Shown here: positions 3,428 to 26,439 of the stretch, in pieces
Numbering within the stretch: the stretch's first letter is position 1
How the letters are laid out: every line of letters begins with the position of its first letter
Origin: Candidatus Bathyarchaeota archaeon
Lineage (GTDB): Archaea; Thermoproteota; Bathyarchaeia; 40CM-2-53-6
Assembly (NCBI GenBank): GCA_963726255.1
Contig: CAVSBL010000002.1
Coordinates: forward strand, 1,696,001 to 1,760,000
Direction of reading: 5' to 3'
Length of the DNA: 64,000 nt
Position numbers and translations under genes: made by a program
Notes under the pieces: model-generated
Databases searched by the model: none
Told to the model about the DNA's origin: nothing
The model's input: only the letters and a program-made list of their open reading frames with translations

Positions 3428-4138
3428 GTGAAGAATGACGTTTGGAACGCGGTAATTCATGCAATAGAGACCTCGATCCCTGAATACGACCACGTTAACG
3501 AGAAGGTTTCGTTCGGTAGGGCATTAAAGGCCCGAAAGTACGCAGTAGGCCAGCTTGCACTGAGCGAGGGAATGACGGTTCTCGATGCGGGCATCGGCCC
3601 AGGAACTATGAGCGAAGCCCTCCTTTCAGAATCCGAAGGCCTCACGATTCTAGGGTTGGACGCGTCAGCGACGCTTCTTCGCGCGGCCCGCGAACGCTTC
3701 AAATCATCAAGACGTACGCAACTACATTTCGTACGTGCAGTTTTCGAAGCCGTCCCAATCAGGAATGGCTCTGTAAATCGCATCGTAAGCGCATACGCTT
3801 TCAGAGATGCCAGAGACCGCGAGGAGGCTATTGATGAGTTTCGCAGAGTTTTGACATCCGATGGATCCTTCGCGATAATAGATTTGGGTAAACCCAACGA
3901 GGTTCTCAAGAGAGCCATCGTTACGGTATACATTGAACACCTCATGCCCTTGGTCGCCCGGTTTTCGAAATCAAGCCGAATCCGCGGCAACCCGTGGCGA
4001 ATGATTGTTCCGACTTACCAGCTGCTCTCAACTAACCGAGAGCTAATGCAATCCCTGAAGAAACGATTTGATGACGTAAGAATTTCGGAGTTCTCAATGG
4101 GCGGCCTTATAGTTGTTCTTGCGCGAGTTAGCGGCTAG
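3428..4138 (+). CDS. Class I SAM-dependent methyltransferase, UbiE/MenG-like
   Basis: YDHVN, VLDAGIGPG motif I, AYAFRD, RVLxxxG. Confidence 0.8.
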   Translation: MKNDVWNAVIHAIETSIPEYDHVNEKVSFGRALKARKYAVGQLALSEGMTVLDAGIGPGTMSEALLSESEGLTILGLDASATLLRAARERFKSSRRTQLHFVRAVFEAVPIRNGSVNRIVSAYAFRDARDREEAIDEFRRVLTSDGSFAIIDLGKPNEVLKRAIVTVYIEHLMPLVARFSKSSRIRGNPWRMIVPTYQLLSTNRELMQSLKKRFDDVRISEFSMGGLIVVLARVSG

Positions 4139-5352
4139 CTGCCGACTCTTGAAACGAAATCAGCCATCTTCTTGAACCCTAACTCAATTCGTTCCTCAGA
4201 CTCGCTGACGAACGTCATCCTAACGTGGCCACGGCCGTTGTCACCGAAGAATCGTCCGGGTATAACTGCTACTCCAGTCTCTTTCAGGAGTCTTCCTGCA
4301 AATTCCTCTTCGTTTAGTTTCAGCTTCGAGAGGTATGGGCGCATGTCGACAAAATAGTAGAAGGCCCCGGACGGGGTGACTGTTTTGGCTAAGGGGAGAT
4401 GCGTTTTCAGCATTTTTCCCATGAAATCCCTTTTCTTGAGATAGTGTGGGAGAACTATGTTTCTCAGGTAGGGTTCCTTCATGTTTTCTTTCAGGAATTT
4501 CACCAAACCAAATTGGGCCAAACTATCGGGGGCAAGCGTGCTGTACTGTTGCATTTTCTCCATTGAGTCGATTATTTCCTTTGGAGCAAGCGTGTAGCCT
4601 AGACGGAGGCCGGGTATGCTGGCTTCCTTTGAGAAGCTTGAAACGGTTATAGTGTGCTCCCGTGCACCCGGCAGCCGGCTAATCCAAATGTGTTCTCCTT
4701 CGTAGACAATGTGCTTGTAGACATCATCGCTGATTATCCAGAAATCGTAATCCTGCGCGAGATCCACGAGTGCCTTCACAAAGGCCTGATTCAGGATTCT
4801 CCCCGTAGGATTGTCCGGGGATAGAACTATCACTGCCTTCGTTTTCTTTGAGACCGCCTGGTTGAGGGCTTCAGGGCTAGGCTGATATCCGTCCTCAACG
4901 TTGACCGGGAGCCGCTTCGGTTTTCCCTCAGCCAATTCGATCAATTCCCGGTATCCAAGGTACGTGGGATCAGTGACAATCACGTCGTCTCCTGAATTGA
5001 TTAGCGACATGAGCAGACTGAAGATTGCCTCAGTGCCACCAGTGCTCAGAATTATTTCAGAGCGAGGGTCGTAGTCGACCCTGCCGTACTTCCTTGCGTC
5101 ATCTGCGATGGCTGCCCGTAGTTCCGGGATGCCTCGCGTTCCCGTATATCCGCAGCTCTTCAGCGGGTCCGACGTGAGTAGGCGGCTGAATTCGTCGAGA
5201 AAGCCTTGGGGTGGAGGGACGCTAGGTGCTCCTCCACCGAATGATATTATGTTGCCGCGTCCCCGTGCCTCGTCAAGTAGAGCCGCCACTTTGCGGATCG
5301 GCGATATGTGGATTTTCTCCATGCGCCGAGACAGGTTTCTCATCGACTGCAC
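4135..5352 (-). CDS. PLP-dependent aminotransferase class I/II
   Basis: SPDNPTG, DDVY, SFSKEASIPGLRLG, IPGRFFG. Confidence 0.9.
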   Translation of the reverse strand: MQSMRNLSRRMEKIHISPIRKVAALLDEARGRGNIISFGGGAPSVPPPQGFLDEFSRLLTSDPLKSCGYTGTRGIPELRAAIADDARKYGRVDYDPRSEIILSTGGTEAIFSLLMSLINSGDDVIVTDPTYLGYRELIELAEGKPKRLPVNVEDGYQPSPEALNQAVSKKTKAVIVLSPDNPTGRILNQAFVKALVDLAQDYDFWIISDDVYKHIVYEGEHIWISRLPGAREHTITVSSFSKEASIPGLRLGYTLAPKEIIDSMEKMQQYSTLAPDSLAQFGLVKFLKENMKEPYLRNIVLPHYLKKRDFMGKMLKTHLPLAKTVTPSGAFYYFVDMRPYLSKLKLNEEEFAGRLLKETGVAVIPGRFFGDNGRGHVRMTFVSESEERIELGFKKMADFVSRVGS

Positions 5353-5393
5353 ATTTCATCGTGCAGCCTGCACCGCTTATACCGTTTACTGTG

Positions 5394-6680
5394 CTACGTT
5401 GCAGGTTTGAGTTTGGTCGCTCCACCCATGTAGACTTGTAAAGTTTCTGGGATCGTGATCGAACCGTCTTTGGTTTGGTAGTTCTCCAAGATTGCGACCA
5501 AGGCTCTCTCAGTGGCGACGAGCGTGCTGTTGAGGGTGTGAACCCAACTGGTTGGTTCGTCAGGCCTGTCTCTGAACCTGATTTTCGACCGCACCGCCTG
5601 ATACGTCGTGCAGTTGCTGCACGAGACCACCTCTCTGTACGTGCCCTGCCCTGGAAGCCACGCGTCTAGGTCATATTTCTTCGCGGCGACTGTTCCGAGA
5701 TCCCCTGTACAAACGTTGACGACTCGGTATGGGATTTTCAGCATCTGGAAAAATTCTTCAGCGTTCGCAATGAGTTTCTCATGTTCATCCCACGTCTGTT
5801 CCGGTTTGCAGAAGACGAACTGTTCGACCTTCTCGAATTGGTGCACCCTGAAGATTCCTTTGGTATCCTTCCCGTGCGCGCCAGCTTCCTTTCTGAAGCA
5901 TGGGCTCACTCCTGAATACCTTAGCGGCAGTCTCTTTCCATCTAATATTTCGTTCATGTGTTGCGCGAGGAGTGCGTGTTCAGATGTCGCGAGAAGGTAG
6001 AGGTCTTCTCCTTCCACCTTGTAAATGACGTCTTCAAAGTCTGATAGTGCGACAGCGCCCCCAACTGCTTCACGCCGCAGTAGGTATGGGGGTTGTGTTA
6101 ACTTGTAACCTTTCATGTCGCAGAAGTCCAAAGCGAGTCTAATCAGGGCATGATTGAGTTTCACCAGGTCCCCCCTGAGGTAGTAGAATCTAGCCCCAGC
6201 GACCTTCGCGGCTCTCTCTAGGTCGACAAGCCCAAGTTGTGTGGTTAAGTCGATGTGGTCTTTCGGTTTGAAGTTGAACTCTGGTGGTTTGCCCCACTTC
6301 CTCACTTCAACGTTATCATTCTCATCTTTCCCAACCGGCACGCTCTCGTGCATTATGTTAGGCAGTTGCATGAGCGTGTTCGCAATCTTGCTGTCGAGAT
6401 CTGCGACCTCTTTCTCGAGCGTTTTGATTTGATCTGGAATCTGTTCAGCTTCTTTAACCAATTGCGAGACATCCTGGCCTTGTCTCCGAGCTTGAGCTAT
6501 CTGTTCCGTGATCTTGTTCCTCTTGCTTCGCAGCGTGTCTGCTTGGGTTCGAAGGCTACGCCATTTGCGATCATTTTCTAGCAGTTCGTCTACCCAGGGG
6601 ATTTTTGCATCGTCCCCCCGCCGCGTTAGATTCGCTTTGACTACCTGAGGGTTATCCCGAACAAATTTCATATCAAGCAT
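5394..6680 (-). CDS. serS: Serine--tRNA ligase
   Basis: N-terminal coiled-coil arm, FRKEAG..GIFRVHQFEKVE, EVVSCSNC, HTLNST. Confidence 0.98.
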   Translation of the reverse strand: MLDMKFVRDNPQVVKANLTRRGDDAKIPWVDELLENDRKWRSLRTQADTLRSKRNKITEQIAQARRQGQDVSQLVKEAEQIPDQIKTLEKEVADLDSKIANTLMQLPNIMHESVPVGKDENDNVEVRKWGKPPEFNFKPKDHIDLTTQLGLVDLERAAKVAGARFYYLRGDLVKLNHALIRLALDFCDMKGYKLTQPPYLLRREAVGGAVALSDFEDVIYKVEGEDLYLLATSEHALLAQHMNEILDGKRLPLRYSGVSPCFRKEAGAHGKDTKGIFRVHQFEKVEQFVFCKPEQTWDEHEKLIANAEEFFQMLKIPYRVVNVCTGDLGTVAAKKYDLDAWLPGQGTYREVVSCSNCTTYQAVRSKIRFRDRPDEPTSWVHTLNSTLVATERALVAILENYQTKDGSITIPETLQVYMGGATKLKPAT

Positions 6681-6780
6681 GTTTCTCGCCTACTTTTCGA
6701 GCATTCAAGCGATTGTTTTCACTCGGGTAATTAGGTTGGAAATAGTTTGGCATTGTGTTTTGGGCCGCCTAATTAAAAGC

Positions 6781-7644
6781 TCATCTAAGATTCGTTGCGA
6801 CGAATATCACAGCTAACAGGATCAGTGCATATCCCGCAATTTGAATAGGATTTGGAACTTCATGGAAGAGAGGTATGGCAAAGAGGGATGCCAAGATAGG
6901 CTCCATTAATGGAAAGAGGTTTGCTGTGACGGTCTTTACAGAACCGAGGGAATAGTTGTAAAGTGAATGGCCAACCGCAGTAGGCAACAGCGCCAAGCCA
7001 AGAATGGCGACAATATTTTGCGCATCATATGATTGAAACGTATGCTCTCCCAACGCTCCAACCATAAGTAACGCAACCAATGCGGCAGCTGAGTATACGT
7101 AAGACGTGTAGCAAGATGTGCTAACGCCGCTCGTCCTCAGGTATCTTCCCACTAAGGAGTATTGAGCCACGAAGAAGGCGGCGAGCAAAGCGGAAAGGTC
7201 AGCCAATCCGAACGCATGGAAGCCATTGCCAGCGTTGGCAACAAGTATGACTCCAAACGTAGCAACCAGCACACTCACTATTTCCTTTGAGGTTGTTCGC
7301 TCCCTTATGATGATGGGAGAGAGCACTGCAAGCATGACTGGGCTCGTGTTCACCAAGAATGTTGCGTTTGCGATTGTGGTTTCCTTGACCGCGAAAATGA
7401 AGGCCGCAAAATGCAAACTGAGAAATGCGCCGGAGATCGCGACGAGAACCAAGTCACGCCTCGGTAGGATGTGTAAATTTCGGCTTGCGAATCCAAATAG
7501 AACCATTACCAATGCAGCAATGAAAAGACGGAAAAACGTTAGCGACATCGCGGAAGCTTCAGTTGCAAATCTGATGAAAATTGCGGCTGTGGCAAAGAAG
7601 AATGAAGCAACAAAAAGAATGACTATACCCCTTGATAGTGACAA
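6781..7644 (-). CDS. DMT/EamA family transporter
   Basis: About 10 hydrophobic segments, two EamA-like repeats, GHSLYN..EP. Confidence 0.85.
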   Translation of the reverse strand: MSLSRGIVILFVASFFFATAAIFIRFATEASAMSLTFFRLFIAALVMVLFGFASRNLHILPRRDLVLVAISGAFLSLHFAAFIFAVKETTIANATFLVNTSPVMLAVLSPIIIRERTTSKEIVSVLVATFGVILVANAGNGFHAFGLADLSALLAAFFVAQYSLVGRYLRTSGVSTSCYTSYVYSAAALVALLMVGALGEHTFQSYDAQNIVAILGLALLPTAVGHSLYNYSLGSVKTVTANLFPLMEPILASLFAIPLFHEVPNPIQIAGYALILLAVIFVATNLR

Positions 7645-7767
7645 CCAAAGAACACTCGCAGATTATGACAGAGCAGTGTATTGCCGAACATTGTCCTTTA
7701 ACTATCTGATGGCTATTTAGGATTCGAAAATTAGTGCGCTGACCCAGCGCGCTCGGCGGAAGTACCG

Positions 7768-8652
7768 TTGAACAACCAAACGAGAGGAGCTTTGCTCATA
7801 ATGGCGGCTGCTTTCTTATGGGGAACCACTGGAGTAATCAGCAAGACTGCTTACGCCGAAACTAATGTGGGTCCGATTTCGCTCGCTTTTTATCGACTAA
7901 TATTCGCGATTCCAGTCCTTGCGTTTCTCGTTCGGGTAAAGCGGTACGAAGTTTCACTGACGCTCGGCGAGGTAGGGCTCTTCGCGTGTTTCGGTTTCTG
8001 CAGCTTGTCTGTCTTCGAAACGCTCCTCTTTACCGCATTTCAGTACACTACCGTGCAACACGCGACTGCGCTTCTTTATACTGCGCCTGCTTTCGTTGCC
8101 CTACTTTCGTGGTTGATCCTGAAGGAGCATTTTACCAAGGCCAAGATAGCTGCTGTCGCTCTTTCGATTCTAGGGGCGTTCCTGATTCTCGGTCTAGTGA
8201 CGCGTGAACCGTTGTTTGCGTCAAGAACGCAGATTGGAGACTGGTTGGCAGTGGGTTCAGGGTTGGCTTACTCTTCCTGGTACCTTTTCGGAAAGGTTCT
8301 TGGAAAAAGTAGGGACCCGGCGGTCACAGCTTTGTTGGCTACGTGTTTCGGATCCATTTTCCTATTCCCAATCATGGTGGGACTAGAGGGAATGCGAATC
8401 CCGGGAAGCATGCTTGCTTGGCAGTTAGTGGCGACTATTGGGGTCGTTCCAACCGCGATGGCGTACGTTCTTTACCTAGGCGGATTAAAGCTGATCGAAG
8501 CAACTAAGGCCAGCGTTTTTGCAATAATCGAACCAGTCACCGCGGCGATCCTAGGATTTTGGTTCTTTCATGAAATGTTTACTTACGTTTCGTTCGTCGG
8601 GTTTGCGCTAATAATCGGTAGCATTATTCTAATCTCAACGGATAGAACTTAA
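7768..8652 (+). CDS. DMT/EamA family transporter
   Basis: LWGTTG, LLYTAP, IIEPV motifs; about 10 TM segments; divergent from the other EamA gene. Confidence 0.85.
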   Translation: MNNQTRGALLIMAAAFLWGTTGVISKTAYAETNVGPISLAFYRLIFAIPVLAFLVRVKRYEVSLTLGEVGLFACFGFCSLSVFETLLFTAFQYTTVQHATALLYTAPAFVALLSWLILKEHFTKAKIAAVALSILGAFLILGLVTREPLFASRTQIGDWLAVGSGLAYSSWYLFGKVLGKSRDPAVTALLATCFGSIFLFPIMVGLEGMRIPGSMLAWQLVATIGVVPTAMAYVLYLGGLKLIEATKASVFAIIEPVTAAILGFWFFHEMFTYVSFVGFALIIGSIILISTDRT

Positions 8653-8747
8653 CCGATGCGAAGCGCACTTTGCTTTTCGGAGCTTTTCATACATACCTTC
8701 TTAATCTAACGGTAGGCTATAGTTTCCATGCAGTCAGGTGATAACTT

Positions 8748-9059
8748 ACGTTCAAACTGGTTATTCTCGTGAAGAAGAGAGAGACTCTGAGCGATCAGGA
8801 ATTTGCCAAATACTGGCTGGAAAAGCATGCTCCTCTAGCAAGAAAGATGCCCGGATTGAGGAGGTACGTTGTCAATGTCGTTAGGAGACCACCTAACAGG
8901 GAACCCGATTACCACGGAGTCGTGGAGCTATGGTTCGACGACATTGATAGCATGAAAAAGGGATTCGCTTCTCCAGAAGGATTGAACACACAGAGGGATA
9001 CAGAAGCCTTCGCAAGCAAACTCATAACTCTATACATTGACGAGCATGAGATAGCCTAG
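8748..9059 (+). CDS. EthD-family dimeric alpha/beta-barrel protein (start probably ACG 8748; ORF track uses GTG 8769)
   Basis: FKLVILVKKR..EF..YW...HAPL....PGLRRY..N, DGV-like ELWFD motif. Confidence 0.8.
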   Translation, partial: TFKLVILVKKRETLSDQEFAKYWLEKHAPLARKMPGLRRYVVNVVRRPPNREPDYHGVVELWFDDIDSMKKGFASPEGLNTQRDTEAFASKLITLYIDEHEIA

Positions 9060-9103
9060 CACGATGAAAACTCAGGCAGTTCGTTAAGCCCATTTATCGT
9101 GGT

Positions 9104-9162
9104 GGTTCTGTTTACTGAGCGTCGGACGAAAAAAGAAACGATGACTGTTAACTCGCGTCGGA
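9104..9162 (+). repeat. Left terminal inverted repeat of the large element
   Basis: GGTTCTGTTTACTGAGCGTCGGACGAAAAAAGAAACGATGACTGTTAACTCGCGTCGGA. Confidence 0.9.
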
Positions 9163-9169
9163 TGTGTGC

Positions 9170-9355
9170 TCATTTGGTTTGTTGGATTAGTTTCGCGTTG
9201 ATTTCGTCAAACATTTTTATCTTGGGAAAATACTGTGTCTCACGGTAGCCCGTATCTGTCACATATTGTCCTGCCCTATGCTGGAACTCAAGTTTGGCGT
9301 AATTGAGCGCTTCCTTGAGGAAGGCAATCTCTTCTACAGTGAAATCGATATTCAT
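9170..9355 (-). CDS. Small hypothetical cargo protein (61 aa)
   Basis: ATG start, helical protein-like composition, ends just inside the left TIR. Confidence 0.55.
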   Translation of the reverse strand: MNIDFTVEEIAFLKEALNYAKLEFQHRAGQYVTDTGYRETQYFPKIKMFDEINAKLIQQTK

Positions 9356-9397
9356 GCCTAAGCCCTTCCATGCTCTAATCCTGTCTGCCCACTCATA

Positions 9398-9604
9398 TTA
9401 ATCACCTGTAGGATTTTTGGGCATAGCTCTTGCTCCACGTCTTGGGCTTTTCTTAGGTTCTTTTTGTCTCGAATCGCCCTTGAGCAGATGTTCATCATAT
9501 TTCCTGAGCCGATTTTGAAATTCTTGACTTTTATCAGGTATGTAGTCATCAAACCATCTAGTTAGTGCGCGTGCCATGGCAATTGAAATTGCATACGCTT
9601 GTCC
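9398..9604 (-). pseudogene. 3' remnant of a 5'-truncated cargo gene
   Basis: Open frame with no credible start; abuts the transposase fragment at a probable deletion junction. Confidence 0.4.
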
Positions 9605-9859
9605 CATAACAAAATGGAACGATTCAACGGAGAGTTACGCGACCGAGAAAAAGTAATGCGCTCACTCAAGAAAGAGGATACACCCATCATTTCAGGAGTC
9701 CAAATCTATCACAACTACATAAGACCTCATGTAGGATTAAACGGCGTGACACCCGCAGAAAAGGCTGGTATCGAGGTTAAAGGAGAAGATAAGTGGCTGA
9801 CTCTAATCCAAAACGCTGCCCAAAGCCGACATATATCAAGATACGGATTGCATACTTAA
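9605..9859 (+). pseudogene. C-terminal fragment of an archaeal IS6-like DDE transposase
   Basis: NKMERFNGELRDR (third catalytic E region), YHNYIRPH..LNG.TPAEKAGI, KWLTLIQNA; the N-terminal region with the two catalytic Asp is absent. Confidence 0.85.
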
Positions 9860-9912
9860 TCATACGGATTGCATACTAATCTTTATTACGGTGTCATCCG
9901 TATGAACATACG
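9841..9912 (+). promoter_or_regulatory. Tandem and inverted operator-like repeats around a TATA-like box
   Basis: ATACGGATTGCATAC(T)TAAT x2 (9841-9880), CTTTATTA (9881-9888), inverted copy CATCCGTATG (9895-9904), CATACG (9907-9912). Confidence 0.55.
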
Positions 9913-9944
9913 CTGGGAAACCGCTACGGACGGAGGTGAATCGA

Positions 9945-10628
9945 TTGAAGCTTGGCGAGTATACCATTCCTGACAATCCTAACAGACTTCCATTGCTAGT
10001 CGAAGTAACGAAGAAAATCTATGACACATACAAATCGGACGCTATTCCAAATGCCACAAAGAATGACGCGCTTGCCCAGTTACTTGGGTTCAAGTCATCA
10101 AACAATGGTGCATATTGGAATCGTCTCACGGCATTGCGAACATACGGATTGCTTGAGGGCCGAGGGGACTTGCGAGTCTCGCAGCTAGGAAAGGACCTGA
10201 CATACGGGACAGGTGAAACAAAATCACATGCAGCCTTCAAAGCGTTTCAAAACATCGGGCTTTGGAGGGAACTATACAAAGCGCACAGATTTCAGCTACC
10301 AACTCAGGATTTCTGGGCGAAACTTGCGAAGATTGCGAATTGCGAACCGCCAGTAGCCAAAAGTAATCAACAGTATGTTAGCGAGGCTTTCGCAGAGGAT
10401 TCAAAACTCATTACATCCAGCAAACAAGGTACAGGTGGCGAGGATGAAATGACATCATTGGAGCAACAACCTCAGGGAACCCCTCAATACATCGAAATTA
10501 AGGCAGGACCGTACTTCCATCGGCTTCCCTTCACGACCCAGGGGAAGAAAATCGCGTTGGAAGCCCTACAACTGCTCGAAGTACCAGAAACCAAAGTGAC
10601 TGAGAAAACCGACAAAAGAGAGAGGTAA
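9945..10628 (+). CDS. Hypothetical cargo protein with a predicted winged-helix N-terminal domain
   Basis: RBS GGAGGTGA before TTG 9945; LAQLLG..NNGAY..RLTALRTYGLLEG....VSQLG pattern resembles a wHTH. Confidence 0.65.
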   Translation: MKLGEYTIPDNPNRLPLLVEVTKKIYDTYKSDAIPNATKNDALAQLLGFKSSNNGAYWNRLTALRTYGLLEGRGDLRVSQLGKDLTYGTGETKSHAAFKAFQNIGLWRELYKAHRFQLPTQDFWAKLAKIANCEPPVAKSNQQYVSEAFAEDSKLITSSKQGTGGEDEMTSLEQQPQGTPQYIEIKAGPYFHRLPFTTQGKKIALEALQLLEVPETKVTEKTDKRER

Positions 10629-10686
10629 AGGCGACATGAACCAGTTGAGACGGAATAGGTAACCAAATTGAATTGGAGGTGAAAAA

Positions 10687-10869
10687 ATGGCAACTAAGGG
10701 CGCGGGTGTCAATGTATTCATGCTGATGGGCAAGTTACGAGCACTAGAGAAAAGACTCGACACTATGCAGCATACAATGGAAAACATGAATACCAAAATT
10801 GATGACATCCGCAGCACACTGAACGAGATTAAGCCGCCAGTAGTCAAAGCTTTGGAGAGGTCTGAGTGA
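10687..10869 (+). CDS. Small coiled-coil cargo protein
   Basis: Strong RBS GGAGGTGA; heptad pattern LRALEKRLDTMQHTMENMNTKIDDI. Confidence 0.65.
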   Translation: MATKGAGVNVFMLMGKLRALEKRLDTMQHTMENMNTKIDDIRSTLNEIKPPVVKALERSE

Positions 10870-11177
10870 GAACCACTCGCCTCACTAAAGTGGTCAATCG
10901 CCATGTTCAACGTGGGGTTGACTATGCTACTTCAGACGGTGTCGTCGCGTTGCTTCGCGAGCATTCGAAGAAACGTGACCTTCCACTTTTCCGCATGCTT
11001 GAAATTCTCGCTGAAGGTAAAGTAACTAGCGTCTCTTTCACGAGGGCTTCACCGTATTTCCGGTTCTATGCAAGTGCGACCACTAACGGTGATAAGCTAG
11101 CCATCATAACCATCAATACAGACGAGGGCGAGTATGAAACGACGCTCGATTTATCGCAGTTAGCCGATGAAGAATAA
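10866..11177 (+). CDS. Hypothetical cargo protein
   Basis: GTGA overlap with upstream ORF (translational coupling); acidic C-terminus. Confidence 0.55.
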   Translation: MRTTRLTKVVNRHVQRGVDYATSDGVVALLREHSKKRDLPLFRMLEILAEGKVTSVSFTRASPYFRFYASATTNGDKLAIITINTDEGEYETTLDLSQLADEE

Positions 11178-11332
11178 AAGATAGTCCAAATCAGGCAAAT
11201 GAAGGAAAAACGGTTTGTACAACATTTTCGTGTTCTTAAGGCGTACGACGGCCTCAATACTTTCGACCATGTCAGTGTCTAAACTGTTATATCCTCTCAG
11301 TTTTCAGTAGGACACCGAGTCATACTACCTCG

Positions 11333-11662
11333 GTGCGATTAATGCCAAATGGTTTCGTGAATGGAAACATCGTTTCCATGCCCTGCTTGATTAGTTCCGG
11401 TATGTCATCTTTTGAACGGTACGTTAGGATTGAAGCTGAACCCGAGCGGATTACTGGTTTTGTCAATATTTCGTCGATTGTCGATAGCTCACAAAATAAC
11501 CATGAACCAGTGCGTAAGGGGAATGTCAAAGCCATCATCGTCGCGTTTTCCAAGGCTGATGTGAGATTACTATTTTCAGGTCAAGACCTTCACCCATCCA
11601 ATCCAGCGCCGGTATCTGTAGACTGGTTAGGAAGATGCGCACAACTCGTAGGCAAGAAATAG
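11333..11662 (+). CDS. Small beta-rich hypothetical protein, cotranscribed with the dCTP deaminase
   Basis: 109-aa ORF ending 9 bp before dcd on the same strand. Confidence 0.6.
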   Translation: MRLMPNGFVNGNIVSMPCLISSGMSSFERYVRIEAEPERITGFVNISSIVDSSQNNHEPVRKGNVKAIIVAFSKADVRLLFSGQDLHPSNPAPVSVDWLGRCAQLVGKK

Positions 11663-11671
11663 GTCAGTTCG

Positions 11672-12247
11672 TTGATACTAAGTCATTCTGACTTAGTACG
11701 CGCATGGAAAAAACGACGCATCACCTTCGACCCAGATATTACATTAGACCAGATTACTCTGTCGTCCATAGATTTGCGGTTAGGATGCGAGTTCGCGAAA
11801 CTACAGCCAAAGCAAGGCTTAACCATTAATCCTTCTCTTGACGATTTCGACCCTGAGGGACTCTATACTCGCGAGGACCTAAGTCAGCCCGACAGTCTAG
11901 GAAGGCCACGTCTTTTCAAGCTGGACCCAGGTGAATTTGTCGTGGGCTTCACTTATGAGAAGATTCAACTATCCACCAAGCTGGTGGCAAGCATAGAGGG
12001 ACGAACACGGCTTGCGAGGTACGGCCTTTCTGTCCATACAACTGCACCGCATATTCATCCTGCGTTCGGTGGACCTATCGCCTTAGAACTTCACAATATA
12101 GGACCAATTTCGATTCAATTGCGGCCAAAATTAGACAAGATTTGTCAGTTAATCATACATGAACTAAAATCACCCGTATCACTGAAACTTGCTAGCGCCA
12201 TGGGCACTTTCATGCACCAAAAGACAGCCTACCGGCGGCCGCGGTAG
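11672..12247 (+). CDS. dcd: dCTP deaminase (trimeric dUTPase-fold), divergent, transposon-borne
   Basis: MILS, SSIDLRLG, LDPGEF...T.E, EGRTRLARYGL, IHPAFGG.IALELHN, ICQL. Confidence 0.85.
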   Translation: MILSHSDLVRAWKKRRITFDPDITLDQITLSSIDLRLGCEFAKLQPKQGLTINPSLDDFDPEGLYTREDLSQPDSLGRPRLFKLDPGEFVVGFTYEKIQLSTKLVASIEGRTRLARYGLSVHTTAPHIHPAFGGPIALELHNIGPISIQLRPKLDKICQLIIHELKSPVSLKLASAMGTFMHQKTAYRRPR

Positions 12248-13250
12248 CAAGAAGATTAAGTGACATGCGCTGTTTTATTCGACGCGAGTTACCACCGTGA
12301 TTTTTTTCGTCGTCCGCCACCAAGTAAACAGAGCCATCGTGGTTAACTCGTTTCAAGACAATATCGGCCAGAGCCGATATGAAAGTAGGGCTTGTGTCCA
12401 AGGACTCAGTCCGCTTCAGGTTCAGGCCATGTGTACTTGCAAACTCTTTGGCTTCTACGTCGATATCGTACAAGATTTCAAGGTGGTCGGCGACGAAGCC
12501 TATCGGAACAACGAGAACGTTAGAGTCCTTATCATGTTGACTTAGTTCTTGGAGCGATTCTAGGATATCTGGGCCAAGCCATTTCTCCGCCGTTTGCCCG
12601 GCACTCTGATAGGCGAACGACCAGTGGTCGAGGTGCAGGAGCTCTGCGACGGCTTGGCATGAGCTATGCAATTGTGAAGGGTACGGATCGTGGTGCTCAA
12701 GGATTCGCTCGGGTAGGCTATGTGCTGTGAACAATAATTCGACACTACTCGACTTGGGAAACTGCTCCAAAGCGAGCTTGACCTTTTCGGCGACCGCACG
12801 ATGGAATAGGGGATGGTCGTACCAGCTATCAACGAAGTCCACCCGCATGTCGCGGGTGGCAGCCAGCGCCTTATCGAGGGCTTGCTTGTACCCTCCAATA
12901 CTGATATTGGAATAGTGTGGGGACAGTGCCAACGCGACGATTCGACGAAAACCGTCATTCGCGATTCTCGGAACGACCTCACCAAGGTAGGGATGCCAAT
13001 GTTTCATCCCAACATAAACTCGAGTCTCCACTCCTTGTGCGCCCAGAGACTTCTCTAGGGCTGAGGCTTGTGCATTCGAAATATCGAGGAGTGGAGAACG
13101 GCCACCGATCTTCCTGTATCGGTCTATCAGGTTTTCCACGGCGCTTTGAGTTGGTTTGCGGCCTCTCCTGACATCGGTCAAGTATGCTTCCATATCCTTC
13201 TCTGAGGTTGGAGTACCGTAAGCCATCAGGAGAACGGCGAGGTCCGGCAA
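12210..13250 (-). CDS. hemH: Coproporphyrin ferrochelatase; last 41 aa come from read-through into the transposon end
   Basis: MAYGTP, GGRSPL, MKHWHP, TAHSLP, WLGP, GFVADHLEILYDID (Firmicutes CpfC-like). Confidence 0.93.
   Translation of the reverse strand: MPDLAVLLMAYGTPTSEKDMEAYLTDVRRGRKPTQSAVENLIDRYRKIGGRSPLLDISNAQASALEKSLGAQGVETRVYVGMKHWHPYLGEVVPRIANDGFRRIVALALSPHYSNISIGGYKQALDKALAATRDMRVDFVDSWYDHPLFHRAVAEKVKLALEQFPKSSSVELLFTAHSLPERILEHHDPYPSQLHSSCQAVAELLHLDHWSFAYQSAGQTAEKWLGPDILESLQELSQHDKDSNVLVVPIGFVADHLEILYDIDVEAKEFASTHGLNLKRTESLDTSPTFISALADIVLKRVNHDGSVYLVADDEKNHGGNSRRIKQRMSLNLLATAAAGRLSFGA
12278..12335 (-). repeat. Right terminal inverted repeat of the large element
   Basis: Reverse complement GGCTCTGTTTACTTGGTGGCGGACGACGAAAAAAATCACGGTGGTAACTCGCGTCGAA. 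Confidence 0.9.
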
Positions 13251-13259
13251 ATTTGACGC

Positions 13260-14291
13260 CTAACCAGAATTCTTAGTCGAGTCGTGAACGAATTTCACAA
13301 GTTCAATAACGTTCTGTGGTGATGTTTCGGGCAGCATTCCATGTCCCAAGTTGAAAATATGACCCACTTTTCCCCTGGTTTTCGTCAGGATTTCCGTGGC
13401 GTGCGATCTGATTAGCTCTGGGTTCCCGAGCAAGACGGCCGGGTCTAGATTACCTTGAATTGCAACATCACTTCCAAGCCGTGCCCAAGCAAGGTCGATG
13501 GGAATCCTCCAATCAACTCCGAAGACATCTCCCCCCGCCTGCTTCATTTCTTCGAGTAGGTTTGATGTTCCAGTTCCGAAGTGAATGCGCGGCACGCCGG
13601 TCGCCTCCAACTCTTTGAAGATTCGGCGGGAATAGGGAAGCACGTACTGATGGTAGTCTTGCGGGCTGAGGCAGCCAACCCAACTGTCGAAAAGTTGAAC
13701 GATGTCGACTCCCGCCTTGATTTGCGCTTGTAAGTAACTTGCCATGGCGGTCGATAACCTATCCATCAAGGCATGCCAAGTCTTCGGGTCGCGGTACATT
13801 AGAGCCTTCGTGTTCACGAAATCCCTCGTCGGCCTTCCCTCGATAATGTAACTCGCTAATGTGAATGGCGCCCCGGAGAAACCAATCAAGGGAACATCAA
13901 GCATCTTCTTGGTCTGGGCAATCGCTTCGAGAACAAAGGGCACGTCATTCCTCGGGTCAAGATTCGTTAAGGAATTGGCGGAATCTAAACTCCGGATTGG
14001 TTCTTGAATCAAAGGCCCGAGGCCCTCTTTGATTTCGAACTTTACTCCCATGCCTTGCAGAGGCAGCATGATGTCAGCGAACATTATCCCGGCATCCACG
14101 CCCAGAGTTTCTACGGGCATCGTGGTAACTTTCGCGCATAAGTCAGGATTCTTGCATATGGAAATCACATCATGCTTCTCTCTGACCTTCCTGTACTCTG
14201 GTAGGTACCTGCCCGCTTGTCGCATAAACCAGACAGGAGTGGCGTCGACGGGTTGGCGTCGACAAGCTTTGATGAGGCGGTCATTCAACAT
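13260..14291 (-). CDS. hemE: Uroporphyrinogen decarboxylase
   Basis: PVWFMRQAGRYLPEY, GFSGAPFTLASY, QLFDSW, QGNLDP, FNLGHG. Confidence 0.97.
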   Translation of the reverse strand: MLNDRLIKACRRQPVDATPVWFMRQAGRYLPEYRKVREKHDVISICKNPDLCAKVTTMPVETLGVDAGIMFADIMLPLQGMGVKFEIKEGLGPLIQEPIRSLDSANSLTNLDPRNDVPFVLEAIAQTKKMLDVPLIGFSGAPFTLASYIIEGRPTRDFVNTKALMYRDPKTWHALMDRLSTAMASYLQAQIKAGVDIVQLFDSWVGCLSPQDYHQYVLPYSRRIFKELEATGVPRIHFGTGTSNLLEEMKQAGGDVFGVDWRIPIDLAWARLGSDVAIQGNLDPAVLLGNPELIRSHATEILTKTRGKVGHIFNLGHGMLPETSPQNVIELVKFVHDSTKNSG

Positions 14292-14370
14292 TGGCCGTAA
14301 CCATCCCAACGTCCCTCATCGAAGGCTGAAGATTCATACTCCAAAAGCAAGAAATGAAAGGGTTCGAAAG

Positions 14371-16085
<1,715 letters not shown>

Positions 16086-16105
<20 letters not shown>

Positions 16106-16874
16106 CAACTATTGCCTCTACTAAAGCATCGACCGTGTGAATGCCCGCAACAATGTTCACGCGTATACCCAGTTCCTTGGTTGCTTGGACCGTTACGGGG
16201 CCAATGCAAGCAACCTTGACGTTGCTCAAAATCTGGCGTAATCTATCGTCTCCGAGGACTTGGGCTAGGTTATGGACAGTGGATGGGCTGGTGAAAGTCA
16301 CTAGGTCTATTCCTCTCATGAATATGGAATTGACGCGTTCAGGCGTCAAATCCGGTGGGATGACCGTCTGATATGCAACAACCTCTTCAACCAACGCTCC
16401 ACGTCTTCGCAATAGTTCTGGGAGTTTCTTTGACGCTATGTCCGCGCGTGGGAGAAGGATTCGTTTCCCCCTAACATTGCCTAGTCCATCAGCTATCTTC
16501 TCGGAGAGGAACTCGTTAGGAACAAATTCCGGTTTCTTCGTCGCCCGCTCCAACTCCGACGCTGTGGCAGGCCCGATCGCGGCTACCATGACCTCTCTTA
16601 AGACCGTGGGCGAGATTCCGGTGCTGGCTAGGCGTTTCATCAGGAACCTGACGCCATAAACACTTGTGAATATGATCCAATGATAGTCGCTGAGTCTCCG
16701 TAACGCTTGGTCCAAGGGGTCATTGTCTTGGGCGTGGACTACCTCGATGGTTGGCAGTTCGATTGTCTCTGCTCCGAGGTCACGCAGTTTCTCGGAGAGA
16801 GTTTGAGCCTGTTCAACGGGGCGGGTTACCAAGACCCTGACCCCTGAGAGTGGTCTTAGAGAGGCTGATTGCAT
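16086..16874 (-). CDS. hemD: Uroporphyrinogen-III synthase
   Basis: VLVTRP, IFTS, AIGPAT, AYQT, FTSPST, CIGPVT. Confidence 0.93.
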
Positions 16875-24460: not shown

Positions 24461-25231
24461 CTAGTGGAGCGTACTACCGCCGTCGAGGACTATGGTCTGC
24501 CCATTTAGGAACGAGGAATCATCCGAACAAAGGAACGCGAGTGTCTTCGCTATTTCTTCAGGCCTTCCGAAACGTTTGACCAGGTTGTCACTCCGTTCCT
24601 TTCTCAACTCTTCCTGGGTTAGTTCGCTCACCCATTCTGTTTCAACGTTTCCTAGGGCGATCGTGTTCACTCGAACGTAGGGCGCGAGTTCGAACGCTAA
24701 GGCTTTTGTTAGGCCTAGGATAGCGGCCTTGGCAACAGTGAAAGCGAAACCTTTGTCGTGGCCGCTCAACGCTGGTGTCGAACTCACATTCACTATGACG
24801 CCGCTTTTCTGCTTTAGAAAATGCTGCGCAACGGCTCGGGCGCAGAGGAAAGAACCGAAAAGATCCACGTTAATCGGCTTATAGAAATCCTCGGGTGTGA
24901 GTTCCATGAACCGTTTGTTCCATTCACCCCTGGCAGGGTAGCCGGCTAAGTTTAGTAGCACGTCAACTTTCCCAAACTCCTTGATGGCTCCGTTTACCAT
25001 GCCTTGAACCTCACCTGGTGCAACTAAGACATTAGTGAAGTCTACGTGTGCAAGGATGGACTTCTTCCCCAAAGCCGCCAGCTTGCTCGCAACCGCTTCC
25101 ACTTCATCTATCCTAGACATGTACTGCAAGACAACGTTCGCACCTTCACTTGCGAATTCAAGTGCCGCCGCCCGTCCGATCCCTCCGCTCGCTCCCGTGA
25201 TGATGGCAACTTTGCCAGACAACCTCGACAT
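24461..25231 (-). CDS. Short-chain dehydrogenase/reductase (FabG-like; FxxxK in place of YxxxK)
   Basis: TGASGGIG, NVSS, FTVAKAA, VRVNTI, GQTIVLDGG. Confidence 0.88.
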   Translation of the reverse strand: MSRLSGKVAIITGASGGIGRAAALEFASEGANVVLQYMSRIDEVEAVASKLAALGKKSILAHVDFTNVLVAPGEVQGMVNGAIKEFGKVDVLLNLAGYPARGEWNKRFMELTPEDFYKPINVDLFGSFLCARAVAQHFLKQKSGVIVNVSSTPALSGHDKGFAFTVAKAAILGLTKALAFELAPYVRVNTIALGNVETEWVSELTQEELRKERSDNLVKRFGRPEEIAKTLAFLCSDDSSFLNGQTIVLDGGSTLH

Positions 25232-25831
25232 TGCTAACGCCTCTAACTGCGCATGAACGCCATAAGACAGCTAAATGTCCCTCGTTCTGATCGACGGCCT
25301 TCTTTTCCGAACGTGTTTGTGCGGTTTCGGCAACAGGCTTATGTGCACGGGATTGGGCAAGTTAAGTTAAGAGAGGCCAAAACCTCGCCCACTATTGAGC
25401 AGCTCACTCGCTCCCACATGAGAATTCCGGTACTGGTCTATGAGCGAGTAAAGACCGCACAGTACTTGCGCTTCATCAAACGGCATAGAGAGAGGCTAGT
25501 TTTTGCTGGGCGATTGGATGTACTTGGAATATTGCTTGTCGGATTCACTGGCTATCTGTACGTCTCGGGGACGAAGTACGGTTCCCTCGTGTTCAATGGG
25601 CTATTGGAAATCTTGACCACCGCGAAATTAGATGACAGACTCTACCGGATAACAGACTGGCGGCAGAAGAAAGGCCAATTGATGGTTTACGTTTCTCGTA
25701 GGTTAGGTCCGTAGTTCCAGACCGGTTCGGAATGCGGAATCGTGTACGATAGGAGCCTGACTGAATTCGGTGAGATAGCCCTCGTTCCCACACGGAATAA
25801 AGGCCGAGAGAGCCTCCTTAGCCCCCGATGC

Positions 25832-26261
25832 AGTTCTGTTAAGTTGACGGGGGTTCAGCATCCTTGTTAACCTTCGGGTGTTGGCTCGCATTCTGAATTA
25901 GAGTCAGCCGCTTGTTTTCGCCTTCAACTTTGATGCCCCCTCTCTTTTCTTATTTCTTACCTTCTTTACCTGCTACATACGCGAGAGCGAAACCGGAAAT
26001 GGTGAGACCGAAAGCGGAAATAGCGCTCAGACCTGCCAGAAACATGAGCGGCTGATATGCCAGGAACATGAGAAGCTTGGATGTGCAGCCAAAGCTGTAT
26101 ATGCAGTCAGATGCGGCGCGTGCTAGGACAATAAGAAGCAAAGGCACAACCAACATGACGAAAAGTCCCACGTATATCAAACCGTGAACCTTCTTGAACG
26201 GCAAAGAACATATCACCCGACGCTTAACAGTCAAACCAATACCCAACAACTTAACAGAACC
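25832..26261. mobile_element. 430-bp non-autonomous IS6-like mini-element carrying one gene
   Basis: TIRs (A/G)GTTCTGTTAAGTTG...TGTTAA...TCGGGTG at 25832-25880 and 26214-26261; perfect 8-bp direct repeat CCCGATGC at 25824-25831 and 26262-26269. Confidence 0.9.
25950..26204 (-). CDS. Small 2-TM membrane protein, cargo of the mini-element (84 aa)
   Basis: TTG 26204 preceded by GGGTGA at the inner end of the right TIR; two hydrophobic helices with a CIYSFGC loop. Confidence 0.65.
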   Translation of the reverse strand: MPFKKVHGLIYVGLFVMLVVPLLLIVLARAASDCIYSFGCTSKLLMFLAYQPLMFLAGLSAISAFGLTISGFALAYVAGKEGKK

Positions 26262-26439
26262 CCCGATGCCAAATGCTTTAAGCAATTAGCGCGGTACCGT
26301 CGAGAGGGTTTCGTGGTAGAAGAAAAACCGGAAGCAAGTAGCGACGAATTGGACGACGAGTATTTGCCAGCTTGCTGCCGCAATGGTCGAGCACACACTC
26401 ACCCGGTATAGACGTTTGGTATCGAACTGGTTATTTCCG

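Follow-up and report, generated by a model that had tools for sequence, protein, structure and literature searches.

A probable single insertion of a defective, cargo-carrying IS6-like transposon at the 3' end of the ferrochelatase gene of a Candidatus Bathyarchaeota archaeon

Insertion sequences (IS) of the IS6 family are described as having 8-bp repeats, GG tips and a cTGTt motif, the classical members being small, with a length of 700-890 bp, a single open reading frame (ORF) and repeats of 14-20 bp (PMC7986276). ISDsp3 of Dehalococcoides is the only family member for which that review lists a passenger gene (PMC7986276). Harmer and Hall (2019) argued against placing archaeal 'IS6' elements in the IS6/IS26 family, and pointed to a lack of experimental data for them (PMC6807381). 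Here we describe a 3232-bp element that lies at the 3' end of the ferrochelatase gene, hemH, in a 64,000-nucleotide stretch of the genome of a Candidatus Bathyarchaeota archaeon (contig CAVSBL010000002.1, positions 1,696,001 to 1,760,000), and which very probably represents the single insertion of a terminal-inverted-repeat transposon of an archaeal IS6-like family that is now defective. Two further kinds of mobile unit are relevant to it, namely mobile insertion cassettes (MICs) and miniature inverted-repeat transposable elements (MITEs), which have inverted ends but no transposase and are moved in trans.

Throughout, the window is the whole 64-kb stretch, and coordinates without a prefix are positions in it. 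The genome studied, G000, is 2.42 Mb in size, with an estimated contamination of 9.3%, and the contig that carries the element is 2.36 Mb; C2 denotes a contig of G000 unless another genome is named. The nearest relative, G021, belongs to the same genus, and its hemH is 91% identical to the G000 copy. For the IS6 family we used the ISfinder definition (Varani et al., 2021).

Several features of the element are those of the IS6 family. It is flanked by an 8-bp duplication (ATCGTGGT), as are its relatives (CGCATTAG, TTGCGTAA, TGGAGGCA and CCCGATGC), its tips read GG and then CTGTT, and the transposase of its family is of the DDE_Tnp_IS240/NF033587 type, most like the long ISCpe7-like clade, whose members have a zinc finger at the N-terminus; where the IS6 motif has 'caaa', the element has TTAC, and its sibling L015 has kept the letters, as TGTCAAA. 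Unlike the classical members, however, the element is 3232 bp long, contains seven ORFs or fragments and has ends of ~58 nt with two sub-sites each, and it differs from bacterial members in that the transposase of its family has a SWIM finger and ~29% identity to theirs, and in that this copy has no working transposase. Like ISDsp3 it is an IS6-type element with cargo unrelated to transposition, but ISDsp3 (known here by description) is bacterial with one hypothetical passenger gene, whereas the element described here has several genes in two modules, and cargo is likewise present in a whole group of archaeal relatives of 2.9-4.9 kb. With MICs and MITEs it shares a make-up of inverted ends and target duplication, with passenger genes and no functional transposase; it differs from them in that a transposase remnant has been kept, so that the element is visibly a deletion derivative, and in that its mobilisation in trans is a proposal. 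In the literature searched, no paper on such archaeal cargo elements turned up; long archaeal members of a similar kind may yet be listed in the supplementary IS tables of the two IS6 papers.

The boundaries of the element and the gene that it entered are as follows.

9096-9103, no strand: left copy of the target-site duplication, ATCGTGGT, read directly; single copy in the empty site of G021
9104-9163, plus strand: left inverted end; outer sub-site GGTTCTGTTTACTGAGCGTCGGAC starting at 9104, inner sub-site CTGTTAACTCGCGTCGGA at 9146-9163
12277-12335, minus strand: right inverted end; inner sub-site 12277-12294, outer sub-site ending at 12335
12336-12343, no strand: right copy of the target-site duplication, ATCGTGGT, from direct reading and alignment
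12210-13250, minus strand: hemH (ferrochelatase), the target gene; Pfam Ferrochelatase 1.2e-85, native terminus from relatives

The element occupies 9104-12335, and its inverted ends are imperfect and about 58-60 nt in length; the 8-bp direct repeat that flanks it is perfect. The left end reads GGTTCTGTTTACT from 9104 (longer read GGTTCTGTTTACTGAGCGTCGGACGA), and the right end, reverse-complemented from 12335, reads GGCTCTGTTTACT (longer read GGCTCTGTTTACTTGGTGGCGGACGA), with tips of the form GG..CTGTT (GGTTCTGTTTAC and GGCTCTGTTTAC, from direct reading and alignment) and a subterminal block, TAACTCGCGTCG, common to both ends. A repeat search recovered the ends as two arm pairs, 9103-9138/12301-12336 (36 nt, 78%) and 9146-9163/12277-12294 (18 nt, 89%), and pairwise alignment of the ends gave 45 identities over the 60 left-end positions 9104-9163. 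In each end a CTGTTwAC...CGTCGGA-like site occurs twice, once as the outer and once as the inner sub-site, a layout that is repeated in related ends, where the tip motif (CTGTyAA...CGGGA-like) recurs about 30-40 nt further inward. With zero mismatches, the tip 13-mer GGYTCTGTTTACT occurs at two places only in the window, both of them element ends, and no further copies of the 62-nt ends were found in the 2.42-Mb genome. Loose matches to the tip motif at 24986 and elsewhere were attributed to chance, and one at 26249-26261 belongs to the end of a separate small element.

The vacant form of the site is present in G021. Window positions 8000-9103 align to 3511-2408 of G021 locus L017 at 97.1%, and positions 12336-13400 to 2415-1351 of the same locus at 93.3%, the two alignments sharing exactly 8 bp; ATCGTGGT is thus present once in the empty site (...GCCCATTT ATCGTGGT TAACTCG...; with longer flanks, ...GTTCGTTAAGCCCATTT-ATCGTGGT-TAACTCGTTTCAGG...). 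On the minus strand, hemH of G021 ends in ...RVNHDKWA*. In the window the last 3 codons (KWA) have been exchanged for 41 codons from the right end of the element, and with the element removed hemH ends in ...VNHDKWA at a stop at 9084-9086. As the terminus KWA* was also found in G015, G004 and G014, the difference is an insertion in the G000 lineage and not a loss in that of G021: the 3232-bp unit as a whole was inserted into the 3' end of the G000 hemH after the G000 lineage had separated from that of G021. These results agree with a preliminary description of the window, which had proposed aligning inverted ends at 9104 and 12335 and an 8-bp duplication around them, and had predicted both the empty-site junction and the in-frame hemH stop at 9084-9086 that deletion of the element restores.

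It could be argued that the element is ancestral at this site and was lost by precise deletion in G021, and recombination between the 8-bp repeats could in principle excise it. This is highly improbable, given that G015, G004 and G014 also lack the element and have kept the native KWA*, that no match to element DNA was found in 40 relatives beyond the conserved transposase segment, and that the composition of the element is foreign. Its guanine-plus-cytosine (GC) content is 45.8% against a genome mean of 51.1% (standard deviation 1.6; 1461 same-size windows, 0.2% of which are equally low), in tetranucleotide profile 2.7% of 366 genome windows lie further from the genome than the element does, and each of four internal blocks has 43-47% GC; the AT-rich interior had been noted by eye in the preliminary description and is evident on measurement. 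Cargo was absent from the interval between EthD and hemH in all four relatives inspected (G021, G015, G004 and G014), and none was therefore seen to carry it there without the inverted ends.

The target gene itself was found in 16 of the 40 relatives (16/24 genomes of the family and 0/16 from the other families of the order). Around it, the more distant relatives G015, G004 and G014 (loci L018, L019 and L020) have a gene for a PaaI-like hot-dog thioesterase of ~140 aa between EthD and hemH, which is absent in G000 and G021. In the window, hemH stands in a row with genes that are putative and named from their translations: hemE (13260-14309), a chlorite-dismutase-like/HemQ-type ORF (14371-15099) and a split hemB-like ORF pair (15096-15596 and 15575-16108).

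Of the words sampled from the stretch, at least 60% were present in each of three sequencing runs, all of one study, with no RNA run listed among them, and the population data consist of contigs and unitigs of 4 sequencing runs; such contigs are unable to show the absence of a form. Contigs of both X1 and X2 cover the two filled junctions of the element. One contig each in X1 and X2 joins 9095 to 12336 with 8 ambiguous letters, that is, the empty site; since the short side of 22 letters and a variant letter fit a G021-type allele, these contigs are ascribed to a sister species in the same sediment, and excision within the G000 population was rejected as their origin. The placement of the element by a site-specific recombinase as an integrative element, or its creation as an assembly chimera, was also considered, in view of the 9.3% contamination estimated for the genome and of the related transposase segments that are repeated in it. 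Either would be an extremely improbable account: no integrase or recombinase family was detected in any ORF, the ends are inverted and not direct and are accompanied by an 8-bp duplication, independent runs of that one study supply contigs that extend across the interior and the two junctions, and the element lies inside a 2.36-Mb contig.

Between its ends the element contains the following features.

9170-9355, minus strand: 61-codon ORF of unclear status, from the ORF list; same-strand neighbour of the uS9 fragment, downstream of it
9398-9607, minus strand: pseudogene fragment of ribosomal protein uS9, C-terminal half; Pfam Ribosomal_S9 4e-11, TIGR03627 1.5e-12
9599-9859, plus strand: transposase relic, ~75 C-terminal residues of an IS6-like transposase of SWIM + DDE type; matches the C-terminus of integrase-core DDE enzymes (rve_3 1.7e-4)
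9838-9905, plus strand: region upstream of p230, in which the repeat search found ATACGGATTGCATACT boxes, two direct and one inverted
9936-10628, plus strand: p230, a winged-helix protein of no described family, from homologue and structure searches; recurs within transposons of the same family
10687-10869, plus strand: p60, a small coiled-coil protein, found with p230 and p103 in L073, L103 and L104
10866-11177, plus strand: p103, of no known function, its start overlapping the p60 stop
11333-11662, plus strand: p109, small-protein partner of the deaminase-like gene, from the ORF list
11672-12247, plus strand: dCTP-deaminase-like gene of the trimeric dUTPase fold family; Pfam DCD 1.4e-23

Scans with Rfam and for tRNA over 8600-12800 and 7000-14500 gave no matches. 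The central transposase relic and the passenger genes on either side of it had been recognised in the preliminary description. The relic stands, by its rve_3 match and by its identity (71%) to residues 302-376 of a 377-aa transposase encoded elsewhere in the genome (C2:1272038-1273168). For the passengers the claim held on the right of the relic, whereas the left side offers a uS9 gene fragment and a 61-codon ORF that finds no support.

The 377-aa transposase matches DDE_Tnp_IS240 (PF13610) at 1e-16 and, at its N-terminus, a SWIM zinc finger at 7e-4; against NF033587 (transpos_IS6) it scores 125.2 bits for a cut-off of 125, a borderline pass. Among annotated plasmid proteins, IS6-like ISCpe7 transposases come closest to it, at ~29% identity. 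The relic retains the NKMERFNGE region, presumably that of the catalytic E, and would lie downstream of both catalytic D residues. What the element encodes falls short of an autonomous transposon, as only residues ~302-376 are present and the antisense uS9 fragment occupies the plus strand upstream, and this copy is unable to move itself. The genome has 11 matches to the transposase, one of them intact, a second almost complete but divided between two reading frames, and the others fragmentary.

Complete relatives with cargo were found both in the same genome and in sediment metagenomes, with lengths of 2.9-4.9 kb. The element at L015 5862-10554, which is 4693 bp long, shows ends GGTTCTGTCAAA... 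flanked on each side by CGCATTAG, and encodes an intact transposase with four other ORFs; that at metagenome locus L086 360-4780 has ends GGTTCTGTCAAG..., the duplication TTGCGTAA and a transposase with a p230 homologue; L106 (2.9 kb) and L087 (about 4.85 kb) have a similar appearance. A strict pattern for two-sub-site ends found none in 18 metagenome loci, and a looser pattern found ends in 5 of 40 loci. Taken with the 8-bp duplications and the layout of the ends, the transposase comparisons support placing the element in a family of archaeal IS6-like elements whose transposase combines SWIM and DDE domains.

Some further observations concern other members of this family. The L015 element is one of two IS6-like elements that lie end to end (L015 3875-10554; G000 C2:1267874-1274553): a copy with a broken transposase at 3875-5853, flanked by CGCATTAA and CGCATTAG, abuts the intact copy at 5862-10554, flanked by CGCATTAG on either side, and it seems that the duplication of the broken copy served as the target of the intact one. 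A 42-bp pair of ends lies at L015 3875-3916. Two MITE-like elements without a transposase were also seen, one of 523 bp at C2:896495-897017, with GGTTCTGTTAAG ends and the 8-bp duplication TGGAGGCA, and one of 430 bp in the window at 25832-26261, with ends AGTTCTGTTAAGTTGACGG and GGTTCTGTTAAGTTG and the 8-bp duplication CCCGATGC at 25824-25831 and 26262-26269; positions 25888-25937 of the latter have a faint similarity to the transposase C-terminus.

The uS9 fragment is cut at residue ~76 and its last residues are altered; it covers positions 69-124 of the 130 in the archaeal model and scores 48 bits against a cut-off of 162.75, and so is not full-length. The relic and the fragment, both truncated, meet head-to-head at 9604-9607. 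At this point the unitigs of two runs overlap up to 9604/9605 and in X1 the following unitig picks up at 9576 with the same depth; overlapping unitigs of X1 span the junction at 9605, and the unitig breaks are adapter read-throughs. The host's own uS9 gene lies in an rpl13-rps9-rpoN row (C2:306295-306681), and its product is 43% identical to the fragment, which is likewise 41-49% identical to the sole uS9 match in each of 37 of the 40 relatives (3/40 had no match). In a large protein collection, three full-length S9 proteins (P0054-P0056, 144-148 aa) were found that have a six-residue insertion in common with the fragment and are its closest relatives, at identities of 86, 77 and 67%; they are encoded on metagenome contigs of 2.6-3.3 kb. 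P0054, the closest of the three, has at most 57% identity in any genome but G000 among 401 sampled across the phylum, and gave no matches in a scan of viral contigs; in the Atlas it falls in an S9 cluster labelled Thermoplasmatota, which is a weak lead only. The low identities to the host, the relatives and the 401 genomes mark the fragment as foreign, its source being either an unsampled lineage or a mobile paralogue. The ORF at 9170-9355 has no family in Pfam, NCBIfam, PADLOC or PHROGs and matches only itself in the genome; as it is not rpoN, a uS9 copy from outside the operon is mildly favoured.

The presence of this chromosomal-looking fragment inside the element raised the idea of a compound transposon, in which two decayed IS copies would surround captured chromosomal DNA, and pseudo-compound structures are described for IS6-type elements (PMC7986276). 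We regard this as very unlikely, since just one transposase relic is present, the ~30 bp between the stop of the deaminase-like gene and the right end leave no space for a second IS, and no internal inverted end was found at 9860-9935 or elsewhere in the element.

The cargo on the right-hand side is made up of two modules, p230-p60-p103 and a small protein with a dCTP-deaminase-like gene. None of the 53 homologues of p230 has a Pfam domain. An AlphaFold2 model of p230 has a mean predicted local distance difference test score (pLDDT) of 83, and Foldseek yields weak winged-helix matches with it, although a Foldseek search of the model against the PDB gave nothing at E <= 0.001. Atlas clusters for p230 are labelled 'hypothetical protein' only, a plasmid search by tblastn had no match, and a scan of genome contigs with the p230 alignment gave a single distant locus, 33% identical, in a metagenome-assembled genome of Chloroflexia. 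A homologue is present in 2 of the 22 genomes of the genus. The homology of the element to the closest p230 loci (L073, L074 and L094) begins at 9841, and the same boxes (ATACGG) are kept upstream of the 87%-identical p230 of L073; they are a candidate operator. p230 is probably a self-regulating winged-helix protein that heads the p230-p60-p103 module. The copies of p103 that lie beside p60 in L073, L103 and L104 are 68-70% identical to that of the element.

Of p230 loci, 52 were fetched, 41 of which hold the p230 5' end, 34 of these with enough upstream sequence to be judged. Some transposase of the family is present in 11 of the 41, and right-hand ends follow directly after p230 in L083, L107 and L108. 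The second module, the p109 and deaminase-like pair, occurs in none of the p230 loci that carry p60 and p103, and the interior of the element is therefore a mosaic of at least 4 blocks. The start of p109 is uncertain, as its paralogue favours 11399 and its database relatives are 98-106 aa long; the family has 4 members among 5.8 billion proteins. The ORF at 11672-12247 scores 100 bits against TIGR02274 (cut-off 92.8), and so passes, and aligns to solved dCTP deaminases at 7e-18. Compared with 2qxx, the Glu of ..LEL.. and the Arg of ..LAR.. are kept, and the Ser of GxSS is Thr; in Escherichia coli Dcd this Glu and Arg are catalytic residues. Among PHROGs the only match for any cargo protein is dCTP deaminase, for this ORF, and PADLOC assigned no defence family to any of them. 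A paralogous pair, a small protein of 77 aa and a dCTP-deaminase-like gene, is found at G000 C2:1875737-1876602 (L138 1172-1941), with identities of 49.5% and 56%, the deaminase-like gene there being apparently cut by a stop near its 5' end. No close homologues of the pair were found in the 40 relatives at E <= 1e-25. Our guess would be that the pair is a nucleotide-pool or toxin-like accessory.

As for how the element came to its present form, its transposase would bind the two sub-sites of each end and cut with a stagger of 8 bp, and, if IS26 is a guide, a cointegrate may arise during the move and be resolved by homologous recombination. One internal deletion would have removed the 5' parts of a transposase gene and of a uS9-like passenger or captured gene, arranged head-to-head, to give the junction at 9604-9607. 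When this happened is a nearly even question. We lean slightly to a deletion that preceded the insertion, the element then having been moved in trans by a cognate transposase since lost from the genome, because a similar relic is present in L077: there (717-1150) it is cut at ~299, nearly the same residue as the relic in the window, and lies 146 bp before a putative left end (GGCTCTGTTCG...) that belongs to a p230-carrying element.

The competing sequence of events, in which an autonomous transposon of ~4.4 kb inserted and the 5' parts of its transposase and uS9 genes were deleted in place later, with no mobilisation in trans, has a substantial but somewhat smaller chance of being correct. It accords with the sharpness of the junction, with the 2.9-4.9 kb of the intact relatives and with the lack of a helper transposase with matching ends in the genome today. 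Against this, the similar truncated relic near p230 in an unrelated contig (L077) hints at an older truncation, and no undeleted variant of the element was found in the contigs of the 4 runs, a weak point as these are contigs only.

A number of observations weigh against the interpretation that we prefer, a single insertion of an archaeal IS6-like transposon that is now defective. The membership of archaeal elements in the IS6 family is disputed (PMC6807381), and the NF033587 cut-off was exceeded by just 0.2 bits. The searches found no full-length cognate transposase whose ends match, the ends of the element being unique in G000, and 58 other genomes of the family hold only a related TTAACT..CGTCGGAT end type, the complete elements inspected with such ends encoding TnpB and not a DDE gene. 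No circle, head-to-tail or cointegrate junction was seen in the contigs of the 4 runs, which cannot show absence. The relic stands in tandem with p230 here, whereas in 6 intact relatives, from the 34 judgeable loci, the DDE transposase is divergent to p230 and 210-274 bp upstream of it, so the internal history must be more complex than one deletion. Finally, the L077 relic near p230 sits outside the putative inverted end, and the preferred reading does not account for the coincidence of the cut points.

The related ends came to light in a tip-pattern search of the 58 other family genomes, which returned many GGYTCTGTTAACT..CGTCGGAT ends, mostly in one sister genus; they resemble the inner sub-site of the element studied. 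In the sister genus this end type (GGYTCTGTTAACT..CGGCGGA/CGTCGGAT) is multi-copy and is often found at contig ends. Two complete elements of this kind, G015:C2:62149-63427 (L151 1050-2328; 1279 bp, 8-bp duplication CAGGATCT) and G003:C17:3374-4717 (L152 1075-2418; 1344 bp, 8-bp duplication GCCTTGAG), contain a TnpB-like protein only. The protein is 408-412 aa long, matches PF07282, the Cas12f1-like TNB domain, at 2.6e-24, and is accompanied by no DDE transposase; TnpB adjoins the same end type in four more loci (L139, L142, L148 and L149). In eukaryotes, Fanzor/TnpB genes ride in DDE transposons. In prokaryotes, TnpB is usually tied to IS200/IS605 and IS607. The archaeal TnpB-like genes resemble the Fanzor elements in lying inside inverted ends with target duplications, and differ in that their hosts are archaea and their ends are IS6-like. 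It is conceivable, and we offer it as a tentative proposal, that in these uncultured sediment archaea the SWIM-DDE system, with its long two-sub-site ends and 8-bp duplications, acts as a general cargo shuttle that moves MITEs, multi-gene cassettes like the present element, a divergent uS9 gene and TnpB-only elements in trans.

If this proposal is true, the TnpB-only elements would be a prokaryotic parallel to the Fanzor genes of eukaryotic DDE transposons. The locus itself offers a natural transposition event, in an archaeon that is uncultured, for which both junctions, the duplication and the vacant site are known, which is rare for archaeal IS6-like elements, and the insertion rewrote the C-terminus of the host's ferrochelatase. 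It indicates that this branch of the family goes beyond the 0.8-kb single-gene IS, building transposons of 3-5 kb with long two-sub-site ends, and that it also leaves defective copies which still carry cargo. The defined ends and candidate partner proteins are available for a first biochemistry of the archaeal clade, and p230, the deaminase-like pair, the uS9 fragment and the TnpB-only elements provide leads on how accessory genes may travel between archaeal lineages.

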